64,000 nucleotides of DNA from Acidobacteriota bacterium (GTDB lineage Bacteria; Acidobacteriota; UBA6911; RPQK01; JADFOI01). The position numbers were made by a program, and so were the translations under genes. The stretch is taken from NCBI GenBank assembly GCA_036338435.1, contig JAYZCG010000037.1:6179-70178 (forward strand), written 5' to 3'. How positions within the stretch are numbered: the stretch's first letter is position 1; every line of letters begins with the position of its first letter. Positions 3,841-57,448 of the stretch are shown here, piece by piece. The notes below the pieces were generated by a model. It did not search any database and was not told the DNA's origin. It saw only the letters and a list, made by a program, of their open reading frames with translations.

Positions 3841-4575
3841 TTAGTACCAGGTTTTCATCAGATACAGCCCCTGGGGCGGCGCTGTGGGGCCGGCTGTTTT
3901 GCGATTCTTAGATTTTAAGATTTTGGGGATGTCATCCGATGGTCTTTTGCCGGAGCCAATTTGTAGAAGCGTTCCTACGATATTACGTACCATGTGGTGG
4001 AGAAAACCGTTTGCTTCGACACGGTACGTTATATGGGATCCACATGTTTTGATCTGTGAGAGATGGATTTGGCGGATTCGACTCTTGACTCGCGTGGCTG
4101 CAGCAGCAAATCCTGTGAAATCATGGGCCCCATATAGGTATTGTGTGGCTTTCTGCATAGAACCAACGTCGAGGGGATGCCTCACATGAAGGATGTATCC
4201 GTGGAGGAATGGGGATAACGTAGGGCCGTTGTATATCTGATATTCGTACCGTTTTTTGATGGCATTCTTCTGAGCATGAAAGTTTGACGGAACAGGACTC
4301 AAGTGAATGACTCTAATGTCCCAAGGTAGGATGCCGTTGAGGGAGAGAATAAGTTTTTTTCGAGGAATTGGTTGATCGAGGCTGAAGTGAGCAACCTGTG
4401 CCATGGCGTGTACACCAGAATCAGTTCGACCAGCACCGACTATACTAATGGGATGTCCTGTAATGGTGTTGAGAGCATCCCGCAGCTGGCCCTGGACAGT
4501 ATCCTGATTTTTCTGAATCTGCCAGCCTGCATATCTAGTCCCTACATATTTCAATGTTACTTTATACTTGGCCAT
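3841..4575 (-). CDS. truA: tRNA pseudouridine(38-40) synthase
   Basis: MAKYKVTLKYVGTRYAGWQIQ... GAGRTDSGVHA contains the catalytic Asp motif. Start taken at the internal Met. Confidence 0.85.
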   Translation of the reverse strand: MAKYKVTLKYVGTRYAGWQIQKNQDTVQGQLRDALNTITGHPISIVGAGRTDSGVHAMAQVAHFSLDQPIPRKKLILSLNGILPWDIRVIHLSPVPSNFHAQKNAIKKRYEYQIYNGPTLSPFLHGYILHVRHPLDVGSMQKATQYLYGAHDFTGFAAAATRVKSRIRQIHLSQIKTCGSHITYRVEANGFLHHMVRNIVGTLLQIGSGKRPSDDIPKILKSKNRKTAGPTAPPQGLYLMKTWY

Positions 4576-7653: not shown

Positions 7654-9018
7654 CTATTTTTTCTTCATTAAATACAGCACCCGCTCACTCTCAGCAATGG
7701 GAGCCGATGCTTCAATCGTGAATGTTTCCCGGAACTCCCGTTCAAATCCTTGCTGGGTGTAGTCGGGGAAAATGTCCTCTCGTGTGGACAGGAGTCGCTT
7801 CACCTGGGAGTCGGTCTTGGGAACAAACTCAATAATGAGATGTTTGCAGATTTGTCCCAGGAAGGCTGAGATGTGGGCGAAAGGAAGGTTGTTTGAGATG
7901 GCCAGATGGTGAATGAGGGCCAAGGCCAAAACCGTATCGGCTGGCCCACGCTCGATCAGCGAAGTTCTCTCTTGGTTGCCCCAGCCGATTCCCGGACTCG
8001 GGTTGGTCAAATCGAGCAACAGGGGAAGGATCTCGGTTTCTCCCCGCTTGACGCTTTCCCGGTAATGGTTCTCGACGGCCCACGAATCGATATCGAAGCA
8101 AACAGTCAGGTGATTTCGTTCGGCGGCCAAGCGAGCAAACAATCCCGTATTAGTCCCCAGATCCCAAGCCATTCCCGGCCTGATTCTATCCAGAAACTTA
8201 CCCACCAGCCGCTTCTTCTCCTCCAGGGCTACCGAGGAGTAGTTGGTTGCATCGTAATAGTCGGCCCATTCGGTCGAATCGCCCTTCCATCTCAGCCGTT
8301 TCACGATGGTCTGCAGGTTGTCCACTATTCCGAGAAGAGCGGTGCGGCTGACATGGCGTTTGGTGGGGACTTGCTTGCTGGAGAAGTATTTTTGGCTCTT
8401 GGCATGAAGGTGAATATGAACCCATAGGGAAGGCCTGAGAAGAGTGGTGATGGGCAGCAGGGATCTCGCCAGGTCCAGCGGGACTCCATCGATGTGAATG
8501 CGAAGCAGTTGGCTCAGGCGGATGTCGCGGTAGACCATCAATAGGAGCGGTGCGAGAAAGTGCTGGCAAAACTGTCGGTAGGCTACCCATGGCTCTCCTT
8601 CTAGATATTTTTCAAAAGAAAGCGTGTCGATTAGCAGCGCAGACCCCTCCTTGAACTGAATGTTGTAGGCGCTGCTGTCCTTCAGGGTCATTCCAAAATC
8701 GAGTGCTCGGGCCTGAATTTCGAGGGTCGTTAAGGCTGCCTCCTTCAACTGGCTGAAGCACCACTCATAGGGGTAGGAGATAAAAGGGATCCGCTCGGGT
8801 GCCAGGATCCTATGGAACTCGGAATGATCTTTTTCCAGAGGAATGTCGACTTCCCGGTGAGGAATCAAAAGCTTGCTCTCGACCAGCGCGTCGTATAGCC
8901 CTGAGGACATCAACAGGTCGTAGTGGTCCCCATAAACCGGGTTGACCTGGCGGTAGAGCTGATGATCGCGAGAGAAGAGAAAGCCGCTGGGGTCCCGGAA
9001 AGAGGCCGGAAGTTTCAT
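7654..9018 (-). CDS. two-domain enzyme: N-terminal atypical protein-kinase-like/phosphotransferase-like domain fused to a C-terminal class I SAM-dependent methyltransferase
   Basis: C-terminal MAWDLGTNTGLFARLAA (motif I), VCFDID (motif II) and LALALIHHL are a classical Rossmann methyltransferase. The N-terminal ~290 aa contain LKDSSAYNIQF (D-x4-N catalytic-loop-like) and LLIDTLSFE (DFG/IDxE-like), resembling APH/Kdo-kinase folds. Start placed at MKLPASFRDPSGFLF (9018), which overlaps the upstream small ORF's stop by ATGA. Function is inferred. Confidence 0.6.
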   Translation of the reverse strand: MKLPASFRDPSGFLFSRDHQLYRQVNPVYGDHYDLLMSSGLYDALVESKLLIPHREVDIPLEKDHSEFHRILAPERIPFISYPYEWCFSQLKEAALTTLEIQARALDFGMTLKDSSAYNIQFKEGSALLIDTLSFEKYLEGEPWVAYRQFCQHFLAPLLLMVYRDIRLSQLLRIHIDGVPLDLARSLLPITTLLRPSLWVHIHLHAKSQKYFSSKQVPTKRHVSRTALLGIVDNLQTIVKRLRWKGDSTEWADYYDATNYSSVALEEKKRLVGKFLDRIRPGMAWDLGTNTGLFARLAAERNHLTVCFDIDSWAVENHYRESVKRGETEILPLLLDLTNPSPGIGWGNQERTSLIERGPADTVLALALIHHLAISNNLPFAHISAFLGQICKHLIIEFVPKTDSQVKRLLSTREDIFPDYTQQGFEREFRETFTIEASAPIAESERVLYLMKKK

Positions 9019-9245
9019 GGGTCCTTGTCTTCTGGGCTGGTGGAGAAAAGTGCGGTGAAAAAGAGCTTGATCCTTCTCCAATAGACCTTGATCGCCAGAA
9101 AAAACGCAAAGAAGGCGGCCACCATCGCCTGAACCACCATACTGCCAGTGCCGGGGTCGAGGTAGGCGTGAACGGTGGGGGGATAGAGCACAAAGGTCAC
9201 TCCCAGCAAAAGGACAAGTTTGGTCGAGGTTTTCCAAGCTTTCAT
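9015..9245 (-). CDS. small membrane protein (76 aa), translationally coupled to the downstream kinase-like/methyltransferase gene
   Basis: MKAWKTSTKLVLLLGVTFVLYPPTVHA reads as a signal-peptide/TM-like segment. It is followed by YLDPGTGS, a second hydrophobic helix and a basic WRRIK cluster. AGGAGA lies 11 nt upstream of the ATG. Its stop shares ATGA with the next gene's start. Confidence 0.45.
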   Translation of the reverse strand: MKAWKTSTKLVLLLGVTFVLYPPTVHAYLDPGTGSMVVQAMVAAFFAFFLAIKVYWRRIKLFFTALFSTSPEDKDP

Positions 9246-42093: not shown

Positions 42094-42561
42094 TTAAGAT
42101 CCAGACAGGGTTGATTGAGTATTTCTCTCTGCTTTTTTCAGGCTATGTCGAATTCTTTTGTAAATATTCCTCAGCTTGGACTGATAGATTCTGTGGGGAT
42201 GATTCTCGTCGTGAAGGAGCGTTTTAATCTGCTTTAGACTTCGTTCCAATTCTGGCACTACAAGAGTGGTGTGGGTGGGATCATAAGGAGTGCAAATAGA
42301 AGGCATTCCCAGTTCCATAAAGACCTTTAAATAACGGGCAGTACGCATATCAGGGCAGGTGATTCTTCTGTGAGCGGCTTTGAGTTCATAGCCCAGAAAA
42401 GTATCAACAATTTGCGGTTTGCATTTACGTCCTGGTAGGACCACCACTCGTGTTTTGAGGGGCAGTACTTCGAGGGCGTAGATATCACTCAGTTTCTTGA
42501 TTTCTTGCTGGATAGTTGTGTTAGCACTTACCACTTGCATTGTTTTAATCCTGGGAATCAT
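42094..42561 (-). CDS. hypothetical protein (~155 aa)
   Basis: ORF 42094-42744. The 5' part overlaps the divergent DedA gene start, so the start is placed at the internal Met (MIPRIKTMQVV). I recognise no family. Confidence 0.4.
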   Translation of the reverse strand: MIPRIKTMQVVSANTTIQQEIKKLSDIYALEVLPLKTRVVVLPGRKCKPQIVDTFLGYELKAAHRRITCPDMRTARYLKVFMELGMPSICTPYDPTHTTLVVPELERSLKQIKTLLHDENHPHRIYQSKLRNIYKRIRHSLKKAERNTQSTLSGS

Positions 42562-42720
42562 ACCTGAGTTTGTTCTTCTGTGCTTTCGTACGTTTTTGCT
42601 GCAGTGATTTGAGCTACCAGATTGTATTTCCCCCATCCTGGAACATTTTCCAGTAATCCTATCTCCACGTTGTGGGGAAGGGGAATATGGTACGATGGGG
42701 GATTCTAGATAAGTAATGCA

Positions 42721-43371
42721 ATGCTCCTCATGACCACGGAACAATTCTGGGCTTACTTTGAAGTTTTAATCAGACACACGTATGAATTCATTGAAGGTCT
42801 GGGAGGGATAGGTCTGTTCGTTATTGCTCTCGCAGATTCTTCATTTTTGTCCTTGCCGGAAGGAAATGATGTGCTGATTGTTGTGCTTTCCACGGGGGGG
42901 ACATGGGGGTTGATGGCTTACTATGTTGTTATGACTACGGCCGGTTCCGTTTGTGGATGTAGCATTCTTTACTTGGGCGGATATCGAGGCGGGAAGTTTC
43001 TGAAGAAACGCCTAAAAGGGGGGATGGCAGAAGATATGAAACGTCTCTATAGACGTTGGGGAATGTGGGCTATCTTGATCCCCAGCATTTTACCTCCTCC
43101 CACACCGTTTAAGATCTTTGTGCTCTCTGCTGGATTGTTTCGGGTACCTTTCTCCAAGTTTCTACTCTCTGTTGTAGTTGGTAGGAGCATACGATATTTC
43201 ACATGGGGAATTCTGGCCGTACTATACGGAGAAGTGATTAAAAGATTCATCGAAGGGAATTTACGTGTAGTAGGAACTGTTATTTTTGCTTGTTTGACCA
43301 TCATTGGTGTTAGTTATGCGATAAAGTTGATTCGAGAAAAAAAGAAATTACCTCAGCACGAAGTAACATGA
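42721..43371 (+). CDS. DedA/YqaA (SNARE-associated, TVP38/TMEM64) family membrane protein
   Basis: 216 aa. GIGLFVIALADSSFLSLPEGNDVLIVVL and GRSIRYFTWG are typical of the YqaA/DedA family. Confidence 0.75.
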   Translation: MLLMTTEQFWAYFEVLIRHTYEFIEGLGGIGLFVIALADSSFLSLPEGNDVLIVVLSTGGTWGLMAYYVVMTTAGSVCGCSILYLGGYRGGKFLKKRLKGGMAEDMKRLYRRWGMWAILIPSILPPPTPFKIFVLSAGLFRVPFSKFLLSVVVGRSIRYFTWGILAVLYGEVIKRFIEGNLRVVGTVIFACLTIIGVSYAIKLIREKKKLPQHEVT

Positions 43372-47888: not shown

Positions 47889-49298
47889 CTAGAAGAGCTC
47901 TAATTTAATGGTTAAGAATTCTTTTGGGTTTTCCCGAAAATCATAGAGTAGCTTAAGCATTTCAGCTGAGACTGCATTGAGATTCTGGTAGAGTTGCTCG
48001 TCGTTGGCTAAGCGCCCCAAAGTACCTTTACCTTGCTGCATATTTTCGACAAGTACTGCAATTTGATCAAGTGATTGGCTCAGATTTTGGTACAGTTGGT
48101 CATCCTTTGCCAATTTCCCCAAGGTTCCCTTACCTTCTTCGATGCGCTGAGTGATGGTTACAATATTCTCCACCAGATTGTCACTCTTGTCATATATGGA
48201 GGAATCGTTGACCAATTTACCCAAGGTTCCCTCGCTTTGATCAATTTGGACCAGGATATCTCGCAAACGGCCTGTTGATTCGCTGATTTCATCATAAACT
48301 TCGTGTTTCTGGATTAATTGGGCAAGGGTTCCCTCTCCTTCTTTGAAGTCGCGAACCAACTGTGTAGTTTGTTCCACTGTTTGAATAGCACTCACTAGTG
48401 CCCGATTTAAATTGTCATAGAATGCAGAGTCATTGAAGAAGGTTCCTACCGAACCTTGACCCTCAGCTAGAGGCTGAAAAATCTGGGTTAGTTTGTCGGA
48501 AAGGCCAGACAGGTTTGCTAGGACGTCGTCTGCTCCCGTTATGATCTCCTGGAAACCAGGTTGGCTGGTTCCGGTGATTAAAACAACCTCACGTACTGTA
48601 GTACCTATTAATCCTTCAATGGTTTCTTCAACTACGATGGGCGGACCATCACTTCTTCCCAGAGATATCTCAATGTATTTATCTCCGAGCAGGCCAATGG
48701 ATCCGAGAGAGATATGACTATCTTTTTTGATCCAATCACGATACTCAGATCTAATTTCAGCCGACACAATAATATTTTGGAGGTTGGAGCGATCCTTTAT
48801 AATTTCTTCGCGTATACTTCCCAAGTTACCTTTTTGGCGTCTAAGTTGTCGCTCGAGTTCCTCGACTTTGTCCTTGGCAATTCTAGTTGGGTGAGTCTTA
48901 TCTCCCTGCTCTTGTAGAACTTGAGCATATTCTTGTTGTGCCTGGATCAGGAGCTCTTCACTTGCCGGAATTTCCATCTCCAGTTCTTGTATTTGCTGAG
49001 TTTTGAGATCAATTTGTTCGAGAAGTATTTGGTTGGATTGAATATCGGGGATTTCGCTATTCCGAGAAATCTGAACATCGACGACATTGCCCACTTCGAC
49101 GCCTGCCAGCAACACAATATCACCGGGTTTTAATCCCGAGACGTTGTTCAAGTAGGTTTTAGCGTAAAACGTGTCCTCCAGTAGGCCCACCTGTGTTCCA
49201 ATGGTAAAGATAGCGGTGCCTAAAATAATACAGGTGACCAAGATGAAGATTCCCACCTTGAGTTCTGAAAAATTTGGTCTACTATCTTGTGAGTTCAT
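47889..49298 (-). CDS. mlaD: MlaD/Mce-family protein with long repetitive C-terminal extension
   Basis: N-terminal TM and MCE domain (NVSGLKPGDIVLLAGVEVGNVVDV). About 280 aa of coiled-coil with four ~26-aa repeats (GKGTLGKLAKDDQLYQNL... / GKGTLGRLANDEQLYQNL...). Confidence 0.85.
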   Translation of the reverse strand: MNSQDSRPNFSELKVGIFILVTCIILGTAIFTIGTQVGLLEDTFYAKTYLNNVSGLKPGDIVLLAGVEVGNVVDVQISRNSEIPDIQSNQILLEQIDLKTQQIQELEMEIPASEELLIQAQQEYAQVLQEQGDKTHPTRIAKDKVEELERQLRRQKGNLGSIREEIIKDRSNLQNIIVSAEIRSEYRDWIKKDSHISLGSIGLLGDKYIEISLGRSDGPPIVVEETIEGLIGTTVREVVLITGTSQPGFQEIITGADDVLANLSGLSDKLTQIFQPLAEGQGSVGTFFNDSAFYDNLNRALVSAIQTVEQTTQLVRDFKEGEGTLAQLIQKHEVYDEISESTGRLRDILVQIDQSEGTLGKLVNDSSIYDKSDNLVENIVTITQRIEEGKGTLGKLAKDDQLYQNLSQSLDQIAVLVENMQQGKGTLGRLANDEQLYQNLNAVSAEMLKLLYDFRENPKEFLTIKLELF

Positions 49299-52174: not shown

Positions 52175-52684
52175 ATGATTCGTACCATCCTTAAATACGG
52201 AGCCCCCGAACTTGGCACTGAAAGTCGTCCCATTACCCAGGTCAACAATGAAGTCAAGGCCCTGGCGAAGGACATGTTGGAAACGATGTATGCAGCTCCG
52301 GGCGTTGGTCTCGCAGCGCCTCAGGTAGGAGTTAATGTTCGTTTGATTGTTGTTGATATCTCAGGAGGAGAGGAGAAAGGCCATCAGGTCGTTCTCATGA
52401 ACCCAGAAATTATCAAGCAGGAGGGGAGTCAAGAAGGGGAAGAGGGATGTCTAAGTATTCCTGGATTTACTGCGGTGATTGAGCGTCCTAGCAGTGTAGT
52501 CGTTTCGGCTCAGGATCTTGAAGGAAATCCGCGCGAAATAGAAGCTGATGGGCTTTTGGCACGTGTTTTGTGTCATGAAGTAGATCACCTGAATGGCATT
52601 CTTTACCTGGATCTTATATCGAAATTGAAGCGAGATCTGATTAAAAGAAAAATCAAAAAACTTATTCGTGCTGGGGAGTGGTAA
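52175..52684 (+). CDS. def: peptide deformylase
   Basis: GVGLAAPQVG, EGCLSIPG and HEVDHLNG motifs. Confidence 0.95.
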   Translation: MIRTILKYGAPELGTESRPITQVNNEVKALAKDMLETMYAAPGVGLAAPQVGVNVRLIVVDISGGEEKGHQVVLMNPEIIKQEGSQEGEEGCLSIPGFTAVIERPSSVVVSAQDLEGNPREIEADGLLARVLCHEVDHLNGILYLDLISKLKRDLIKRKIKKLIRAGEW

Positions 52685-53643
52685 TGCGTGTGGTGTTCCT
52701 GGGGACACCAGGTTTCGCTGTTCCTTCTCTTCGTGCACTGCACAGCTGCACTGAGCCTGTCTGTGAACTAGTGGGTGTTGTCACTCAGCCTGATCGTCCT
52801 GCGGGACGGGGACAGAAGCTAACTCCCTCACCCGTGAAGATGCTGGCGACAGAATATGGCATACCTGTTTTCCAGCCTGAGTGTCTGCGCAGCGGTGATG
52901 TCGCACAGAAATTTGTAGAACAAGTCAATCCTCACTTAATGATCGTGGTCGCCTTTGGTCAGATCTTAGAGCCTGAGTTGTTTAGTTATCCTCCATTAGG
53001 AACTCTGAACGTTCATGCTTCTCTACTTCCTAAGTATCGGGGTGCTGCCCCGGTCGTTCATGCTCTCTTAAATGGAGAGCATGAAACCGGCGTCACGATC
53101 ATGAAAATTAACGAAGGCATGGATACCGGAGCAATCCTGTCCCAGTCTACGGTAAAAGTGGGAAGTGACACCAACGCTGCAGAACTGGAAAAAGTTTTGG
53201 CGCATCAGGGAGCTGAATTGTTAATACAAACTATTTCGGGCTATGCAACTGGGGAAATCAACCCTGTTTTTCAGAACAGTGAACAAGTAACGTATGCCCC
53301 TCGAATTGGAAAAGGAGATGTTCGGATTGATTGGAGTTGGGATTCCTTGCAAATTCACAACAGGGTTAGAGCCCTGAATCCACGCCCAGTGGCAACTACA
53401 AACTTCCGTGGTAAGACGGTCAAGATTTGGCGAACGTCGATGGTCCAGGAGAAAGTAAAGGACCTTGATGGATGTCACTCTCCGGGGGTTATCTTGAGTC
53501 TTGACCGCCAGAAGCTACTTGTGGCTTGTGGTGGAGGGTGTTGTGTGTTGATTGAGGAACTCCAAATGCCAAATCGGAGACGTATTTCTGCTGGTGAATT
53601 TATTAATGGGATGACGCCTGAGGTAGGGGAGGCCTTTACTTGA
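52684..53643 (+). CDS. fmt: methionyl-tRNA formyltransferase
   Basis: MRVVFLGTP..., SLLPKYRGAAP and HALLNG. ATG at 52684 chosen over the upstream GTG. Confidence 0.93.
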   Translation: MRVVFLGTPGFAVPSLRALHSCTEPVCELVGVVTQPDRPAGRGQKLTPSPVKMLATEYGIPVFQPECLRSGDVAQKFVEQVNPHLMIVVAFGQILEPELFSYPPLGTLNVHASLLPKYRGAAPVVHALLNGEHETGVTIMKINEGMDTGAILSQSTVKVGSDTNAAELEKVLAHQGAELLIQTISGYATGEINPVFQNSEQVTYAPRIGKGDVRIDWSWDSLQIHNRVRALNPRPVATTNFRGKTVKIWRTSMVQEKVKDLDGCHSPGVILSLDRQKLLVACGGGCCVLIEELQMPNRRRISAGEFINGMTPEVGEAFT

Positions 53644-54914
53644 AAAGTACCCCCCGCTCTCTCGCTGTAGGTTTCTTGACTGATCTTTTCAACGATCACA
53701 GGCATCTTGATTCTCTAAGCCAAAACACTGAATTCCTAGATTTTGATTCGCGCGATCGTCGTTTTGTAACCGAATTAGTCTACGGAGTGTTGAGAAATCT
53801 CAAACTACTGGATCATTACCTGGAAAGCTTGTCACACACAACATTAAAAGAATTGGACGCGACCGTACTGTGGATATTAAGGGTGGCTCTGTATCAAATA
53901 GAGTTTCTGCGCACTCCAAATCATGCTGTAGTGAATGAGGCTGTTGAGACATGTCGCCGATTCCGCAAGGCATCTGCCCATAGCTTTGTGAACGCAATTT
54001 TGAGAGGCTTCTTACGTGAGAGAATCCCACTCCCAAAAGGTGAGTCTAGTAGTGATTTAGCAGTGCGTTTCAGTCATCCTGAATGGCTCGTCAAGCGATT
54101 TTTAAACCGATATGGCATCAAGCAAACCATAGCTTTACTCAAGCGGAACAATCAGCCGCCTTCATCAGTACATTGGGTCAACGTCTTCATGACTGATTTG
54201 CCGTCTCTTTGCAAGGAGCTTGAAGAAGACCAGATTACCTACGAGGTACATTCCTATTTACCTAACTGTATAAGTATCCAATCCTCGGGGTTTGTCGAAC
54301 ATCCAGCTTATCAGGAGGGACGATGTTTCCGTATGGATGCAGCCAGTCAGGAGGTGGCCTACCTAGAAAATCTAACTAATCGGAAGGTGCTGGGGGATTT
54401 CTGCTGTGCCCCAGGGGGTAAGTCCTTTCTGATCGCTTCCCAGATGGAGGATGGGGCCAAGTTATTTTGTTGTGAGGTGAATTTTTCACGTCTCCTGGAG
54501 ACGGACAATCGAGCGCAATTTCTCAATGTCCCTAATCTGAATCTGATCAATGCGGATCTCAGCGTTCACCCCCCTTTTAAGGAGATATTTGATTTTGTCC
54601 TTTTGGATGTCCCTTGTAGTGGGATTGGTACGTTACGTTCCAATCCTGACATTCGGTGGAAAATTCTTGAAAAGGACCTGAATCGATTCCATGACTTGCA
54701 GGTGTCTATACTCCAGAATGGGTTTTCCTCTATCCGTCCTGGTGGACAACTTACCTATTCCACCTGTTCGACTGAGCCTGAGGAAAACGAATGTGTTATT
54801 GAGGAATTCCTGGCCCACGAGAAAAGAGCGTTAGCAATCGGAGAGTTTCATCGAACTTTTCCAGAGCCGCACCTGGGAGATTGTTTCTTTGCAGCACGTA
54901 TTAGACACATATGA
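53640..54914 (+). CDS. rsmB: 16S rRNA (cytosine967-C5)-methyltransferase RsmB (Sun)
   Basis: NusB-like N-terminal domain and MTase core (DFCCAPGGKS... LDVPCSGIGT... TYSTCS). TTG start is uncertain. Confidence 0.88.
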   Translation: MKSTPRSLAVGFLTDLFNDHRHLDSLSQNTEFLDFDSRDRRFVTELVYGVLRNLKLLDHYLESLSHTTLKELDATVLWILRVALYQIEFLRTPNHAVVNEAVETCRRFRKASAHSFVNAILRGFLRERIPLPKGESSSDLAVRFSHPEWLVKRFLNRYGIKQTIALLKRNNQPPSSVHWVNVFMTDLPSLCKELEEDQITYEVHSYLPNCISIQSSGFVEHPAYQEGRCFRMDAASQEVAYLENLTNRKVLGDFCCAPGGKSFLIASQMEDGAKLFCCEVNFSRLLETDNRAQFLNVPNLNLINADLSVHPPFKEIFDFVLLDVPCSGIGTLRSNPDIRWKILEKDLNRFHDLQVSILQNGFSSIRPGGQLTYSTCSTEPEENECVIEEFLAHEKRALAIGEFHRTFPEPHLGDCFFAARIRHI

Positions 54915-54989
54915 AACTAATTTGCTAGATTAACTCTGTGCGGTACTGCATTTTAAATGTTAGATCGATGATGTAAGGGGTTAAGTATT

Positions 54990-55733
54990 TTGATACTCAA
55001 GGCAAGTAACAATTTCCAGGAGCGACTGTTGCATGCAGGTAAGTTAATGGTTTTGTTTGGGATTCTTGTTGCTGTAGGGCTTTTTAGTGCCTATGTGGGA
55101 ATGCGCATTGCCGTGCGGGGTACAGAAGTTCAAGTGCCTGCCGTTTTGGGACAGTCAGTGGGAGAGGCAGGTCAGTTGTTAAAAGAGGTACACTTGCAAA
55201 ATGAGGTTATCGGAGAGCGATTTGACCCTGAGTTTCCAAAGGGAACCATTATTTCCCAGCATCCGCAACCGGGGGGGAGAATGAAGGCTCAGGGTAGGGT
55301 CCAACTGATTATTAGTTTGGGTAAGAAAACAAATCCAGTACCTGATCTGACGGGGGCTTCTTTGCGGGTGGCACGTTTGCTTGCAAGACAGGCTGGATTT
55401 GAGTTCGGTAACATTAGTGAGATCTCTGCTGTGGGGGTCGAAGCGGATCATATTGTTGAGCAATTTCCACCTCCTCAGTCAAGAGATTTTCTGAGTCCTA
55501 GGATTGACATCCTGGTCAGCAAAGGAGATTTGTCTCGTTATGTGATGCCTGATGTGGTGGGGCAGAGTATGAACAAAGTATTACCTTTTTTTAAGAGTAA
55601 CAAGTTTGCGTTGGAAAATATCCGATATGTTTCGCTTGCCAATGTTTCTGCTGGGCTAGTCATTAAGCAATTTCCGGAACCTGGCTACCTTTTGATGGGC
55701 AAAGATTCGATTAATCTGGAGGTGTCGCGCTGA
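54990..55733 (+). CDS. membrane-anchored protein with three PASTA domains and no kinase domain
   Basis: 18-aa cytoplasmic N-terminus, TM, then 3 PASTA repeats (VPAVLGQSVGEAGQLL.., VPDLTGASLRVARLL.., VMPDVVGQSMNKVL..). Occupies the position that prkC holds in def-fmt-sun...prkC...rpe clusters of Firmicutes. Confidence 0.7.
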   Translation: MILKASNNFQERLLHAGKLMVLFGILVAVGLFSAYVGMRIAVRGTEVQVPAVLGQSVGEAGQLLKEVHLQNEVIGERFDPEFPKGTIISQHPQPGGRMKAQGRVQLIISLGKKTNPVPDLTGASLRVARLLARQAGFEFGNISEISAVGVEADHIVEQFPPPQSRDFLSPRIDILVSKGDLSRYVMPDVVGQSMNKVLPFFKSNKFALENIRYVSLANVSAGLVIKQFPEPGYLLMGKDSINLEVSR

Positions 55734-56395
55734 TGGGTCTAGTGGCTCCTTCGATTCTTTCTGCAGATTTCCTGAATTTGGGTAGTGACGTACGCGTTAT
55801 GGAGAAGGCAGGAGCCCAGATGCTCCATGTGGATGTTATGGATGGACATTTCGTCCCCAATTTGAGTATTGGAATCCCGGTTATTAAAGAACTCAGGCGG
55901 AGCACAGATCTGCTTTTAGACGTACACTTGATGATTTCCAATCCCGAAGAAATGTTTTCCCAATATATCAGCGCTGGAGCAGATTATCTCAGTGTGCACT
56001 ACGAGGCCACCAATCATCTGGATCGTTTGGTGGAAAGTATACGAGAAAATGGGGCCCAACCTGGTGTAGTGCTAAATCCCCATACTCCAATCTCGGTATT
56101 GGATGAAATTCTTCCGAAATGTCATCATGTATTGATTATGTCAGTAAACCCAGGATTTGGTGGGCAAGAATTTATTACTAGTAGCTTCAACAAAGTGAGA
56201 AAATTAAAGGAATTGATTAGTTCGAAGAATCTAGAGATTAAGATCGAGATCGATGGTGGAATGGGACCTGAGAATACTCAGGAGGCCGTTGAGGCTGGGG
56301 TTGACATAGTCGTGGCAGGGTCAGCAATATTCGGATCTAAAAGTCCTGAGAAAGCTTTTCACAAAATGCAACAGGTTGTTGGTAGTTCTACTTAG
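55733..56395 (+). CDS. rpe: ribulose-phosphate 3-epimerase
   Basis: APSILSADF, HVDVMDGHFVPN and VDGG motifs. ATG overlaps the preceding TGA. Confidence 0.95.
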   Translation: MGLVAPSILSADFLNLGSDVRVMEKAGAQMLHVDVMDGHFVPNLSIGIPVIKELRRSTDLLLDVHLMISNPEEMFSQYISAGADYLSVHYEATNHLDRLVESIRENGAQPGVVLNPHTPISVLDEILPKCHHVLIMSVNPGFGGQEFITSSFNKVRKLKELISSKNLEIKIEIDGGMGPENTQEAVEAGVDIVVAGSAIFGSKSPEKAFHKMQQVVGSST

Positions 56396-56401
56396 GTAAC
56401 A

Positions 56402-57394
56402 ATGCAATTTCTATTTAGAGTGGCAGTGCTGAGTTTGACGGTTGTGTTGCTTACTTCCTGTGGCCAGAAAAGTGCAGGCCTTCAGGAGGGAGCGGTTGCG
56501 CCTGATCAGCAGCTGTTTGAGACCGGAATGCAATACTTAGAAAAGAATCAGTTTATAAAGGCTCGGTTGGCCTTTCAGACTCTTGTCAACACTTACCCTG
56601 ATAGCGAGCATACGCCGGCCTCATTTCTTGCTATAGCTGACTCCTTCTACAAGGAGGCAGGAACTACCAATTTATTGCAGGCCGAGACCCAGTACAAAGA
56701 TTTCATCATCTTCTATCCTACACATCAGATTGCCGATGATGCGCAAATGAAGATAGCTGCTGTTAATGTCCGTCTGATGAGAGAGCCCGACCGTGATTCC
56801 ACCTATGCCATCAAGGCCGAAAAAGAATTAGACAAGTTCCTGGAAATTTATCCTGACAGTGAGTTAGCCCCCACAGCGGAAGAGTTTCTATGGGAAGTCC
56901 AGGAAAATATGGCTGATGGACTTCAAGGTGTTGGAGACTTTTATTTTGAGAAGGATTCCTATCTGGCCTCTGAAAGTAGATATCAAGAAGTACTCGACCG
57001 GTATCCTGAATACAGCAGAGTAGGCACTACGTTGTACCGTCTGGGTCAGTCACTGGAAAACTTGGGCCGTATTGAGGAAGCCGCTGTGTACTATTCAAGA
57101 TTAGTTTCTGAGTATCCATTTAGTGACTACGAAGGGTCGGCAAGAGAACGCTTAGTTCTCCTTGAAAGACCAGTGCCCAAGGTAGACATCAGGCAAGCTG
57201 CAACTAACGAGAGAAAACATGATCGAAGAGTTGACAAAGGATTTTCTGTGCTAGATCCAATTCGCGGTGTTTGGCATATCTTTACCAGTGGACCGGATCC
57301 ATATGAAGTGGCTCGTCAGCGTGCAGAAGAACGGAAGCAACGGGAACAGGTTGCCTCTCAACGGAATCCAACCTCCGACAACAAAAATAATTAA
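56402..57394 (+). CDS. bamD: outer membrane protein assembly factor BamD (TPR lipoprotein)
   Basis: Lipobox LTSC, TPR-like repeats and a BamD-like sequence pattern. Confidence 0.78.
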   Translation: MQFLFRVAVLSLTVVLLTSCGQKSAGLQEGAVAPDQQLFETGMQYLEKNQFIKARLAFQTLVNTYPDSEHTPASFLAIADSFYKEAGTTNLLQAETQYKDFIIFYPTHQIADDAQMKIAAVNVRLMREPDRDSTYAIKAEKELDKFLEIYPDSELAPTAEEFLWEVQENMADGLQGVGDFYFEKDSYLASESRYQEVLDRYPEYSRVGTTLYRLGQSLENLGRIEEAAVYYSRLVSEYPFSDYEGSARERLVLLERPVPKVDIRQAATNERKHDRRVDKGFSVLDPIRGVWHIFTSGPDPYEVARQRAEERKQREQVASQRNPTSDNKNN

Positions 57395-57448
57395 CTCGCG
57401 TTATGCATGAGTTTTTTGTTGCAATCTAGAAACCATCAATCCTGACTA

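Follow-up and report, generated by a model that had tools for sequence, protein, structure and literature searches.

What does a PASTA protein do in the chromosomal slot of the Ser/Thr kinase PrkC when it carries no kinase domain? This question is raised by a gene encoding a protein of 247 amino acids (aa) in a 64-kb stretch of contig JAYZCG010000037.1 from an Acidobacteriota metagenome-assembled genome (MAG), referred to here as the window. A sequence-only reading of this DNA had described the product as an 18-aa cytoplasmic stub, a transmembrane (TM) helix and three PASTA domains, positioned between def, fmt and rsmB on the 5' side and rpe on the 3' side, and had likened it to PrkC with the kinase removed or to an ancestral stand-alone peptidoglycan sensor. 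We found that the protein corresponds to the TM and ectodomain half of PrkC/Stk1/PknB-type kinases, an assignment of identity and homology that we regard as near certain. As for its role, we favor a kinase-independent, inner-membrane-anchored periplasmic binder of peptidoglycan or lipid II that would act via its TM/juxtamembrane segment, and we give this statement as a whole a probability of about 0.55.

The gene, its start and end signals and the parts of its product are the following:

54975..54980, + strand: Shine-Dalgarno-like AAGGGG, 9 nt 5' of the TTG start (read from the sequence)
54990..55733, + strand: kinase-less TM + 3xPASTA gene, 247 aa, TTG start, TGA stop (open reading frame list and sequence)
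54990..55043, + strand: stub in the cytoplasm, aa 1-18, with the lowest conservation in the protein (commonest residue at a mean frequency of 0.47)
55044..55100, + strand: transmembrane helix, aa 19-37 (Kyte-Doolittle 2.33; within helix 6-43 of the AlphaFold2 model; conservation 0.74)
55101..55127, + strand: MRxAVRGTE, juxtamembrane motif on the periplasmic side, aa 38-46, with the highest conservation in the protein (commonest residue at a mean frequency of 0.88)
55128..55325, + strand: PASTA domain 1, aa 47-112 (best Pfam stretch 47-109; best Smith-Waterman match to PASTA1 of kinase P0113)
55326..55529, + strand: PASTA domain 2, aa 113-180 (Pfam stretch; AlphaFold2 helix 125-134 plus strands; best match to PASTA2 of P0113)
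55530..55730, + strand: PASTA domain 3, aa 181-247, with family-specific KQFPEPGY and INLEV(A/S)R (Pfam stretch; matches PASTA3 of the kinase-less protein P0131)
55731..55735, + strand: TGATG stop/start overlap between the PASTA gene and rpe (sequence; T(G/A)ATG overlap kept in relatives)

The N-terminus cannot extend further upstream, since an in-frame TGA is located at 54969-54971, and the identical 247-aa GenBank entry MEE2822491.1 ('PASTA domain-containing protein [Acidobacteriota bacterium]') indicates that the same start was chosen independently. The Pfam scan of the protein returned PASTA (PF03793) as the sole family, with 100.6 bits (E=4.5e-29) over three stretches against a gathering cutoff of 23.2 bits, and matched neither Pkinase nor transpeptidase; the PASTA assignment thus holds under a profile search. 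The most hydrophobic 19-mer is formed by aa 19-37 (mean Kyte-Doolittle 2.33), which leaves the N-terminal stub of 18 aa. An AlphaFold2 model computed from a 24-sequence alignment (mean predicted local distance difference test score, pLDDT, of 88.2) consists of a single long helix, aa 6-43, and behind it three alpha/beta (helix-plus-strand) modules, which display in tandem the one helix on a three-stranded sheet characteristic of the PASTA fold. Single domains of the model reach TM-scores of 0.76-0.77 to PASTA3/4 of PknB and PASTA4 of StkP. Profile, hydrophobicity and model all agree with the stub-helix-PASTA layout proposed from the letters, and show that the protein is a bitopic inner-membrane protein with its N-terminus inside and three PASTA domains in the periplasm.

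The relation to kinases is most evident from the NCBIfam collection, in which the best model is NF033483 (Stk1/PknB PASTA kinase): its positions 337-563 of 563 are matched by aa 19-246 in one collinear stretch, with a score of 102.1 bits that lies below the curated cutoff of 450 bits and covers the TM and PASTA half only. Among solved structures, the family profile matched kinase ectodomains only (S. aureus 3py9 and 3m9g, M. tuberculosis PknB), and this sequence search of the PDB returned no penicillin-binding protein (PBP). A comparison with PrkC, PknB and PBP2x, which the sequence-only reading had proposed, gave the same ranking by Foldseek, with the ectodomains of PknB, Stk1 and PrkC at E~1e-12 versus ~1e-5 for PBP1/PBP2x, while the SpoVD model TIGR02214 reached E=0.14 over its PASTA tail only. 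The nearest full-length PASTA kinase retrieved, P0113 (583 aa, Pkinase and three PASTA domains), is collinear with the window protein over a stretch that includes the TM helix and ends within the third PASTA domain (BLASTP, aa 11-232 with P0113 aa 321-542, 26% identity, E 2e-21). In Smith-Waterman comparisons with the individual P0113 domains, PASTA1 scored 107 with PASTA1 (85 and 63 with the others) and PASTA2 scored 68 with PASTA2 (52 and 50). PASTA3 has diverged, scoring 29 with its kinase counterpart and 103, one to one, with PASTA3 of the kinase-less P0131. The P0113 locus, def-fmt-DUF116-rsmB-rlmN-FHA-PP2C-kinase-rsgA-rpe, follows the arrangement known from Firmicutes, where, as in B. 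subtilis, prpC-prkC-cpgA is conserved and adjoins rpe (PMC6449344). As both sequence and slot match, the PASTA protein is the positional and sequence counterpart of the sensor half of PrkC-type kinases.

In a library of representatives at 50% identity, 28,466 proteins match the family profile, some of them giants that measure 2,000-5,200 aa and contain as many as 30 PASTA-like stretches (among P0135-P0281). Since scores sum over repeats, these giant multi-PASTA proteins dominate the search, which therefore yields no usable ranking of the nearest kinases.

Like PrkC, Stk1, PknB and StkP, the window protein has one TM helix that leads into extracytoplasmic PASTA repeats, whose number, three, is also that of S. 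aureus Stk1 and B. subtilis PrkC. The chromosomal neighborhood def-fmt-rsmB ... rpe is shared as well. The kinases differ by a Hanks kinase domain and a juxtamembrane linker (~330-350 aa) in place of the 18 aa of the window protein, and by the PP2C, rlmN and rsgA genes adjacent to kinase P0113, none of which is present beside the window gene. Moreover, the PASTA domains of the window protein face a diderm periplasm with thin peptidoglycan, and its PASTA3 bears its own KQFPEPGY motif. Class B PBPs (PBP2x, SpoVD, S. aureus PBP1) share the PASTA fold and a presumed recognition of peptidoglycan or its precursors at synthesis sites, but possess transpeptidase and pedestal domains, both absent here, and carry their PASTA domains C-terminally, far from the TM helix, whereas those of the window protein follow the helix directly.

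The genes and spacer flanking the PASTA gene are arranged as follows:

52175..52684, + strand: def (Pfam Pep_deformylase)
52678..53643, + strand: fmt (Pfam Formyl_trans_N/C)
53640..54914, + strand: rsmB (Pfam NusB + RsmF-B_ferredox + Methyltr_RsmB-F)
54915..54989, + strand: rsmB-PASTA spacer, 75 nt, without kinase remnant (stops in 3/3 forward frames; tblastn with the kinase domain negative)
55733..56395, + strand: rpe, ribulose-phosphate 3-epimerase (Pfam Ribul_P_3_epim, 268 bits)
56402..57394, + strand: bamD, YfiO outer-membrane lipoprotein (Pfam YfiO, 103 bits)

The flanking genes named by the sequence-only reading are all borne out by strong Pfam matches, and aroC is likewise found upstream with def, fmt and rsmB. 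When the window proteins were searched by tblastn against 27 Acidobacteriota loci (PASTA protein identity 43-79%), the PASTA-rpe-bamD module was found in 27/27, and rsmB precedes the PASTA gene in every locus with an upstream flank. The usual wider order is mlaE(-)-aroC-def-fmt before and valS after rsmB-PASTA-rpe-bamD. Of the 27 loci, 26 share with the window an overlap of the PASTA stop and the rpe ATG (TGATG or TAATG), which points to a conserved translational coupling. These data show that expression of the PASTA gene is part of that of a housekeeping cluster, def-fmt-rsmB-PASTA-rpe, and that its translation is coupled to that of rpe. A scan of the rsmB-PASTA spacer for promoters and terminators gave no matches above chance, the single weak promoter-like match (54902-54931) being at chance level.

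In three loci, rsmB and the PASTA gene are separated by an opposite-strand gene (L013 2439-3698, L014 4437-5666 and L024 4406-5794, all on the minus strand), and the PASTA-rpe coupling is retained in each. We considered these 1.7-1.9 kb inserts as candidate kinase genes and rejected them: those of L013 and L014 encode a ~410-aa membrane protein with a HELGH (HExxH) metalloprotease motif, and that of L024 a 462-aa secreted hypothetical protein. In L014, rsmB also has a C-terminal extension with a tandem GGTSVV repeated four times (4353-4460), which the other rsmB copies lack. In a relative at 28% identity, the PASTA gene is located ~2 kb from an inverted rsmB-fmt-def-aroC block.

The synteny extends to other diderms. 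In Elusimicrobiota the order is fmt-PASTA-rpe-rpsP-KH-trmD-rplS in 3/3 independent loci (L031, L035, L037), one of which belongs to a named Elusimicrobiaceae MAG; here rsmB is not positioned between fmt and the PASTA gene. The encoded proteins (332-340 aa) combine a TM helix and three PASTA domains with an extension of ~75 aa at the C-terminus, which the window protein does not share. An Aminicenantes-like form (239 aa) is found in the order PASTA-rpe-epimerase-bamD. Thus, rpe adjoins the PASTA gene in the 27 Acidobacteriota and three Elusimicrobiota loci, and only the Aminicenantes locus L036 is without it; the neighborhood noted in the window is therefore conserved in relatives rather than coincidental, and at least two diderm phyla have the kinase-less PASTA gene at a syntenic position. 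For B. burgdorferi, the annotation of BB0063 reads "Pasta domain protein" (PMC3757035), and BB0065 is peptide deformylase, def (PMC3828560). By these annotations BB0063 is two locus tags away from def. We take BB0064, between them, to be fmt. The Elusimicrobiota, Aminicenantes-like and BB0063 proteins share with the window protein a TM helix and three PASTA domains without a kinase (BB0063 by annotation only), a position beside fmt and/or rpe and a generic annotation, but are only 27-37% identical to it.

In the Elusimicrobiota proteins P0098, P0084, P0115, P0119 and P0133, we observed a conserved C-terminal domain (…HRIHYELPQGKNxNRVKI…RIYVDGILVREKEMK) with no Pfam match. Some PrkC proteins have a C-terminal domain after the PASTA repeats, and the Elusimicrobiota domain may be an analogous beta-sandwich.

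As for kinase machinery, Pfam detected no Pkinase, PP2C or FHA domain among the ~45 open reading frames (ORFs) of the window, and the HRDxKxxN kinase motif does not occur in any of its six frames. In turn, tblastn with aa 1-330 of P0113 (kinase and juxtamembrane part) found no match in the window or in >30 related loci, and no PP2C gene was detected in the flanks of relatives examined. The spacer at 54915-54989, to which the sequence-only reading had pointed for possible remnants of a kinase domain, contains none. Since all relatives are kinase-less, the spacer has stops and tblastn is negative, the protein, as judged from sequence, is not a recent truncation of PrkC. The notion of a PrkC deprived of its kinase is thus sound as regards the TM/PASTA half and the equivalent slot, supported by NF033483 and the P0113 locus, and is not supported as regards a simple or recent removal.

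A protein search gave 85 relatives with identities from 100% to ~28%, in all of which PASTA is the sole Pfam domain; the ~80 closer ones, at 41-80% identity, are thus without exception kinase-less. They are mostly 244-331 aa long, the exceptions being a few fragments and one 352-aa form, and all named homologs are from Acidobacteriota MAGs. The window protein bears the hallmarks of this family, i.e., ~250 aa, a short stub, a TM helix, GMRxAVRG, three PASTA domains and a C-terminal KQFPEPGY...INLEV(A/S)R, and full-length orthologs at 41-80% identity keep the invariant motifs. We measured conservation in 78 family members as the mean frequency of the commonest residue per region, and obtained 0.47 for the stub (1-18), 0.74 for the TM helix (19-37), 0.88 for the juxtamembrane MRxAVRGTE (38-46) and 0.69-0.71 for PASTA domains 1-3 (47-247). 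In a tighter family alignment (A2), M38 and R39 are invariant, as are Q227, P229, E230, P231 and G232 of the QFPEPG motif in PASTA3, and the C-terminal INLEV(A/S)R is conserved right to the stop codon. Read from these frequencies, the strongest constraint lies on the membrane and the segment just outside it, not on the cytoplasmic part. These results show an old kinase-less family that purifying selection has maintained in Acidobacteriota and that has relatives in Elusimicrobiota. The PASTA domain, the generic annotation and the architecture are already recognized in databases, where IMG names such proteins 'beta-lactam-binding protein with PASTA domain'. Our literature searches, which covered PASTA in Acidobacteria, diderms and spirochetes as well as 'stand-alone' and 'PASTA-only' proteins, found no functional study, nor any paper on kinase-less PASTA proteins of diderms or their syntenic equivalence with prkC.

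Proteins of a sister clade (~60% identity, P0013-P0043) are annotated with an N-terminus, absent from the window protein, of 30-100 aa in Thr/Ser- and Lys/Arg-rich units of ~10 aa, roughly H[ED]STKREA[PR]T, which always begins with MTKRP. The corresponding DNA (L010 5645-6005; L001 8001-8133) is built of 8-nt repeats, (AGCACGAA)n, without a stop in any frame. An array of (GCGTTCGT)n located upstream in the spacer is complementary to them, and the two fold as one long hairpin with a minimum free energy of -155 kcal/mol (z = -5.0). The extension may be a real phospho-acceptor-like tail, or else a structured leader or an element of the REP type that was wrongly annotated as coding. Given the repeats open in all frames and the hairpin with the upstream array, we downgraded the Thr-rich tails as evidence for cytoplasmic signaling.

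How could a PASTA protein act without a kinase? In the reading that we favor, the ectodomain would bind periplasmic peptidoglycan material, either lipid II or stem peptides that are not cross-linked. PASTA modules bind muropeptide or lipid II and localize to sites of wall synthesis (reviewed in PMC6213207; see also PMC3145798 and PMC4632501). The output would run neither through a fused kinase nor through the poorly conserved stub of 18 aa, but through the TM helix and the membrane-proximal MRxAVRGTE segment; it is placed there in view of the juxtamembrane conservation of 0.88 versus 0.47 for the stub. The partner touched by this segment would be an integral-membrane protein, with a cell-wall synthase or a component of the divisome/elongasome as the most plausible candidates, and wall synthesis would thereby be reported on, or positioned where its substrate is present. 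According to PMC4632501, the PASTA domain of PknB alone perturbs mycobacterial growth when overexpressed, which may serve as a precedent for kinase-independent ectodomain effects. Taken by itself, this mechanistic part has, in our estimate, somewhat less than an even chance of being correct.

Several points weigh against this proposal. Its mechanism is carried over from knowledge of the PASTA family. The membrane-distal PASTA3 is often decisive in kinases, and that of the window protein has diverged from them, so that its ligand specificity may differ. The register relative to the kinase is only modestly preferred, with 79.7 bits in register versus 65.5 when shifted by one domain (BLASTP). Finally, the high conservation of the TM/juxtamembrane region would fit a TM kinase as partner as well as a synthase, and the kinase scan covered the 64-kb window, so that a kinase may be encoded elsewhere in the genome.

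The most serious alternative is a split PrkC. In this model the PASTA protein would be the sensor subunit and associate, via its TM helix, with a membrane Hanks kinase encoded by a gene of its own; PP2C and FHA partners would likewise be encoded at other places in the genome. Binding of muropeptide or lipid II would gate the dimerization and activation of the kinase. A TM and juxtamembrane region conserved above all others is what would be expected of an intramembrane protein-protein interface, and ligand-dependent dimerization of the ectodomains is the presumed mode of activation of PASTA kinases (PMC6213207). Yet, neither the window nor 30+ flanking regions of relatives contain a kinase, PP2C or FHA gene, and the stub is just 18 aa long and poorly conserved. 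The Thr/Ser- and Lys/Arg-rich N-termini of 30-100 aa in the sister clade could provide phospho-acceptor sites, but the window protein lacks them and they may be a mis-called structured leader of 8-nt repeats. Likewise, the stand-alone receiver-domain (Response_reg) gene present two genes downstream in relatives, between bamD and valS (L006 8400-9068, L001 10593-11315, L002 10686-11228, L032 9635-10141), is absent from the window, where this position is a mere 54-nt gap (57395-57448); the gene has been lost in the window lineage. We consider a split receptor unlikely, although it is the best placed of the alternatives.

Even less probable, in our view, is an ancient single loss, according to which a PrpC-PrkC cassette once resided between rsmB and rpe, the kinase, PP2C, rlmN and rsgA were deleted, and the PASTA stump persisted mainly as a structural or localization factor. 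The slot and the collinear TM/PASTA homology shared with the full kinase locus of P0113, together with the positional orthology of PASTA1 and PASTA2 to those of the kinase, speak for it, but kinase-less forms hold the slot in at least two diderm phyla and we saw no intermediate or remnant. This account concerns history rather than present mechanism, and is compatible with the kinase-independent binder favored above. The small size, missing catalytic domain and generic annotation of the protein might also suggest a decaying relic, a chance ORF or a functionless fragment of a PASTA-bearing PBP. This we hold to be scarcely credible: full-length orthologs at 41-80% identity retain the invariant motifs, the coupling to rpe is conserved, PBP models and folds match far more weakly than kinase ectodomains (SpoVD E=0.14; PBP2x/PBP1 ~1e-5 vs 1e-12), and the PASTA domains directly follow the TM helix instead of lying C-terminally at a distance from it. 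The PBP-fragment and pseudogene readings were accordingly rejected on similarity ranking and conservation.

The kinase-less forms that we saw all belong to diderm phyla and the kinase forms to Gram-positive-type loci. One fusion would explain this distribution as well as one loss. If the carriers all fall on the same side of the root of Bacteria, a gain is no less parsimonious than a loss, which also takes weight from the ancient-loss account. We may nevertheless sketch, tentatively and as a scenario that is doubtful in its entirety, a stand-alone TM-3xPASTA gene between fmt/rsmB and rpe that would be ancestral in diderms (Acidobacteriota, Elusimicrobiota, Spirochaetota) and would serve peptidoglycan synthesis or division there, in a conserved role independent of any kinase, via its membrane-proximal segment, the Gram-positive kinases arising later through fusion of a PP2C-Hanks cassette at the same locus.

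With regard to the wider surroundings, the window contains mlaE, mlaF and a long mlaD on the minus strand upstream of the cluster, and LolA-like and LolCDE-like genes farther upstream. The proximity of bamD, Mla and Lol genes indicates a diderm envelope; the host is a diderm Acidobacteriota MAG and not a Firmicute. Other genes of the window are housekeeping ones (dxr, uppS, ruvC, grpE/dnaK, uvrB, aroA/aroK, nuo, atp, ccm). The MlaD protein (47889-49298, minus strand) is unusually long (469 aa); its MCE domain is followed by coiled-coil-like repeats, and its homologs bear a long extension assigned to Pfam PF28544 'Helical_needle'. It recalls the long MlaD of Veillonella parvula, which has been proposed to bridge the envelope (PMC10665443). 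Two minus-strand ORFs, of 527 aa (7654-9237) and 216 aa (42094-42744), have no Pfam match, and the latter overlaps the start of a plus-strand VTT-domain gene by ~24 nt.

In the review literature (e.g., PMC6213207), wall sensing by PASTA kinases counts as a Gram-positive hallmark. Here, the sensor half alone is conserved and tied to housekeeping genes in at least two diderm phyla. The finding is of use for comparison and for building hypotheses; it does not demonstrate a new mechanism. It offers a natural "kinase-deleted" experiment on what PASTA ectodomains do apart from phosphorylation, as well as a locus-level scenario for the origin of PASTA kinases, whether via fusion or loss. In BB0063, B. 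burgdorferi provides a tractable entry to an unstudied protein of the diderm envelope.

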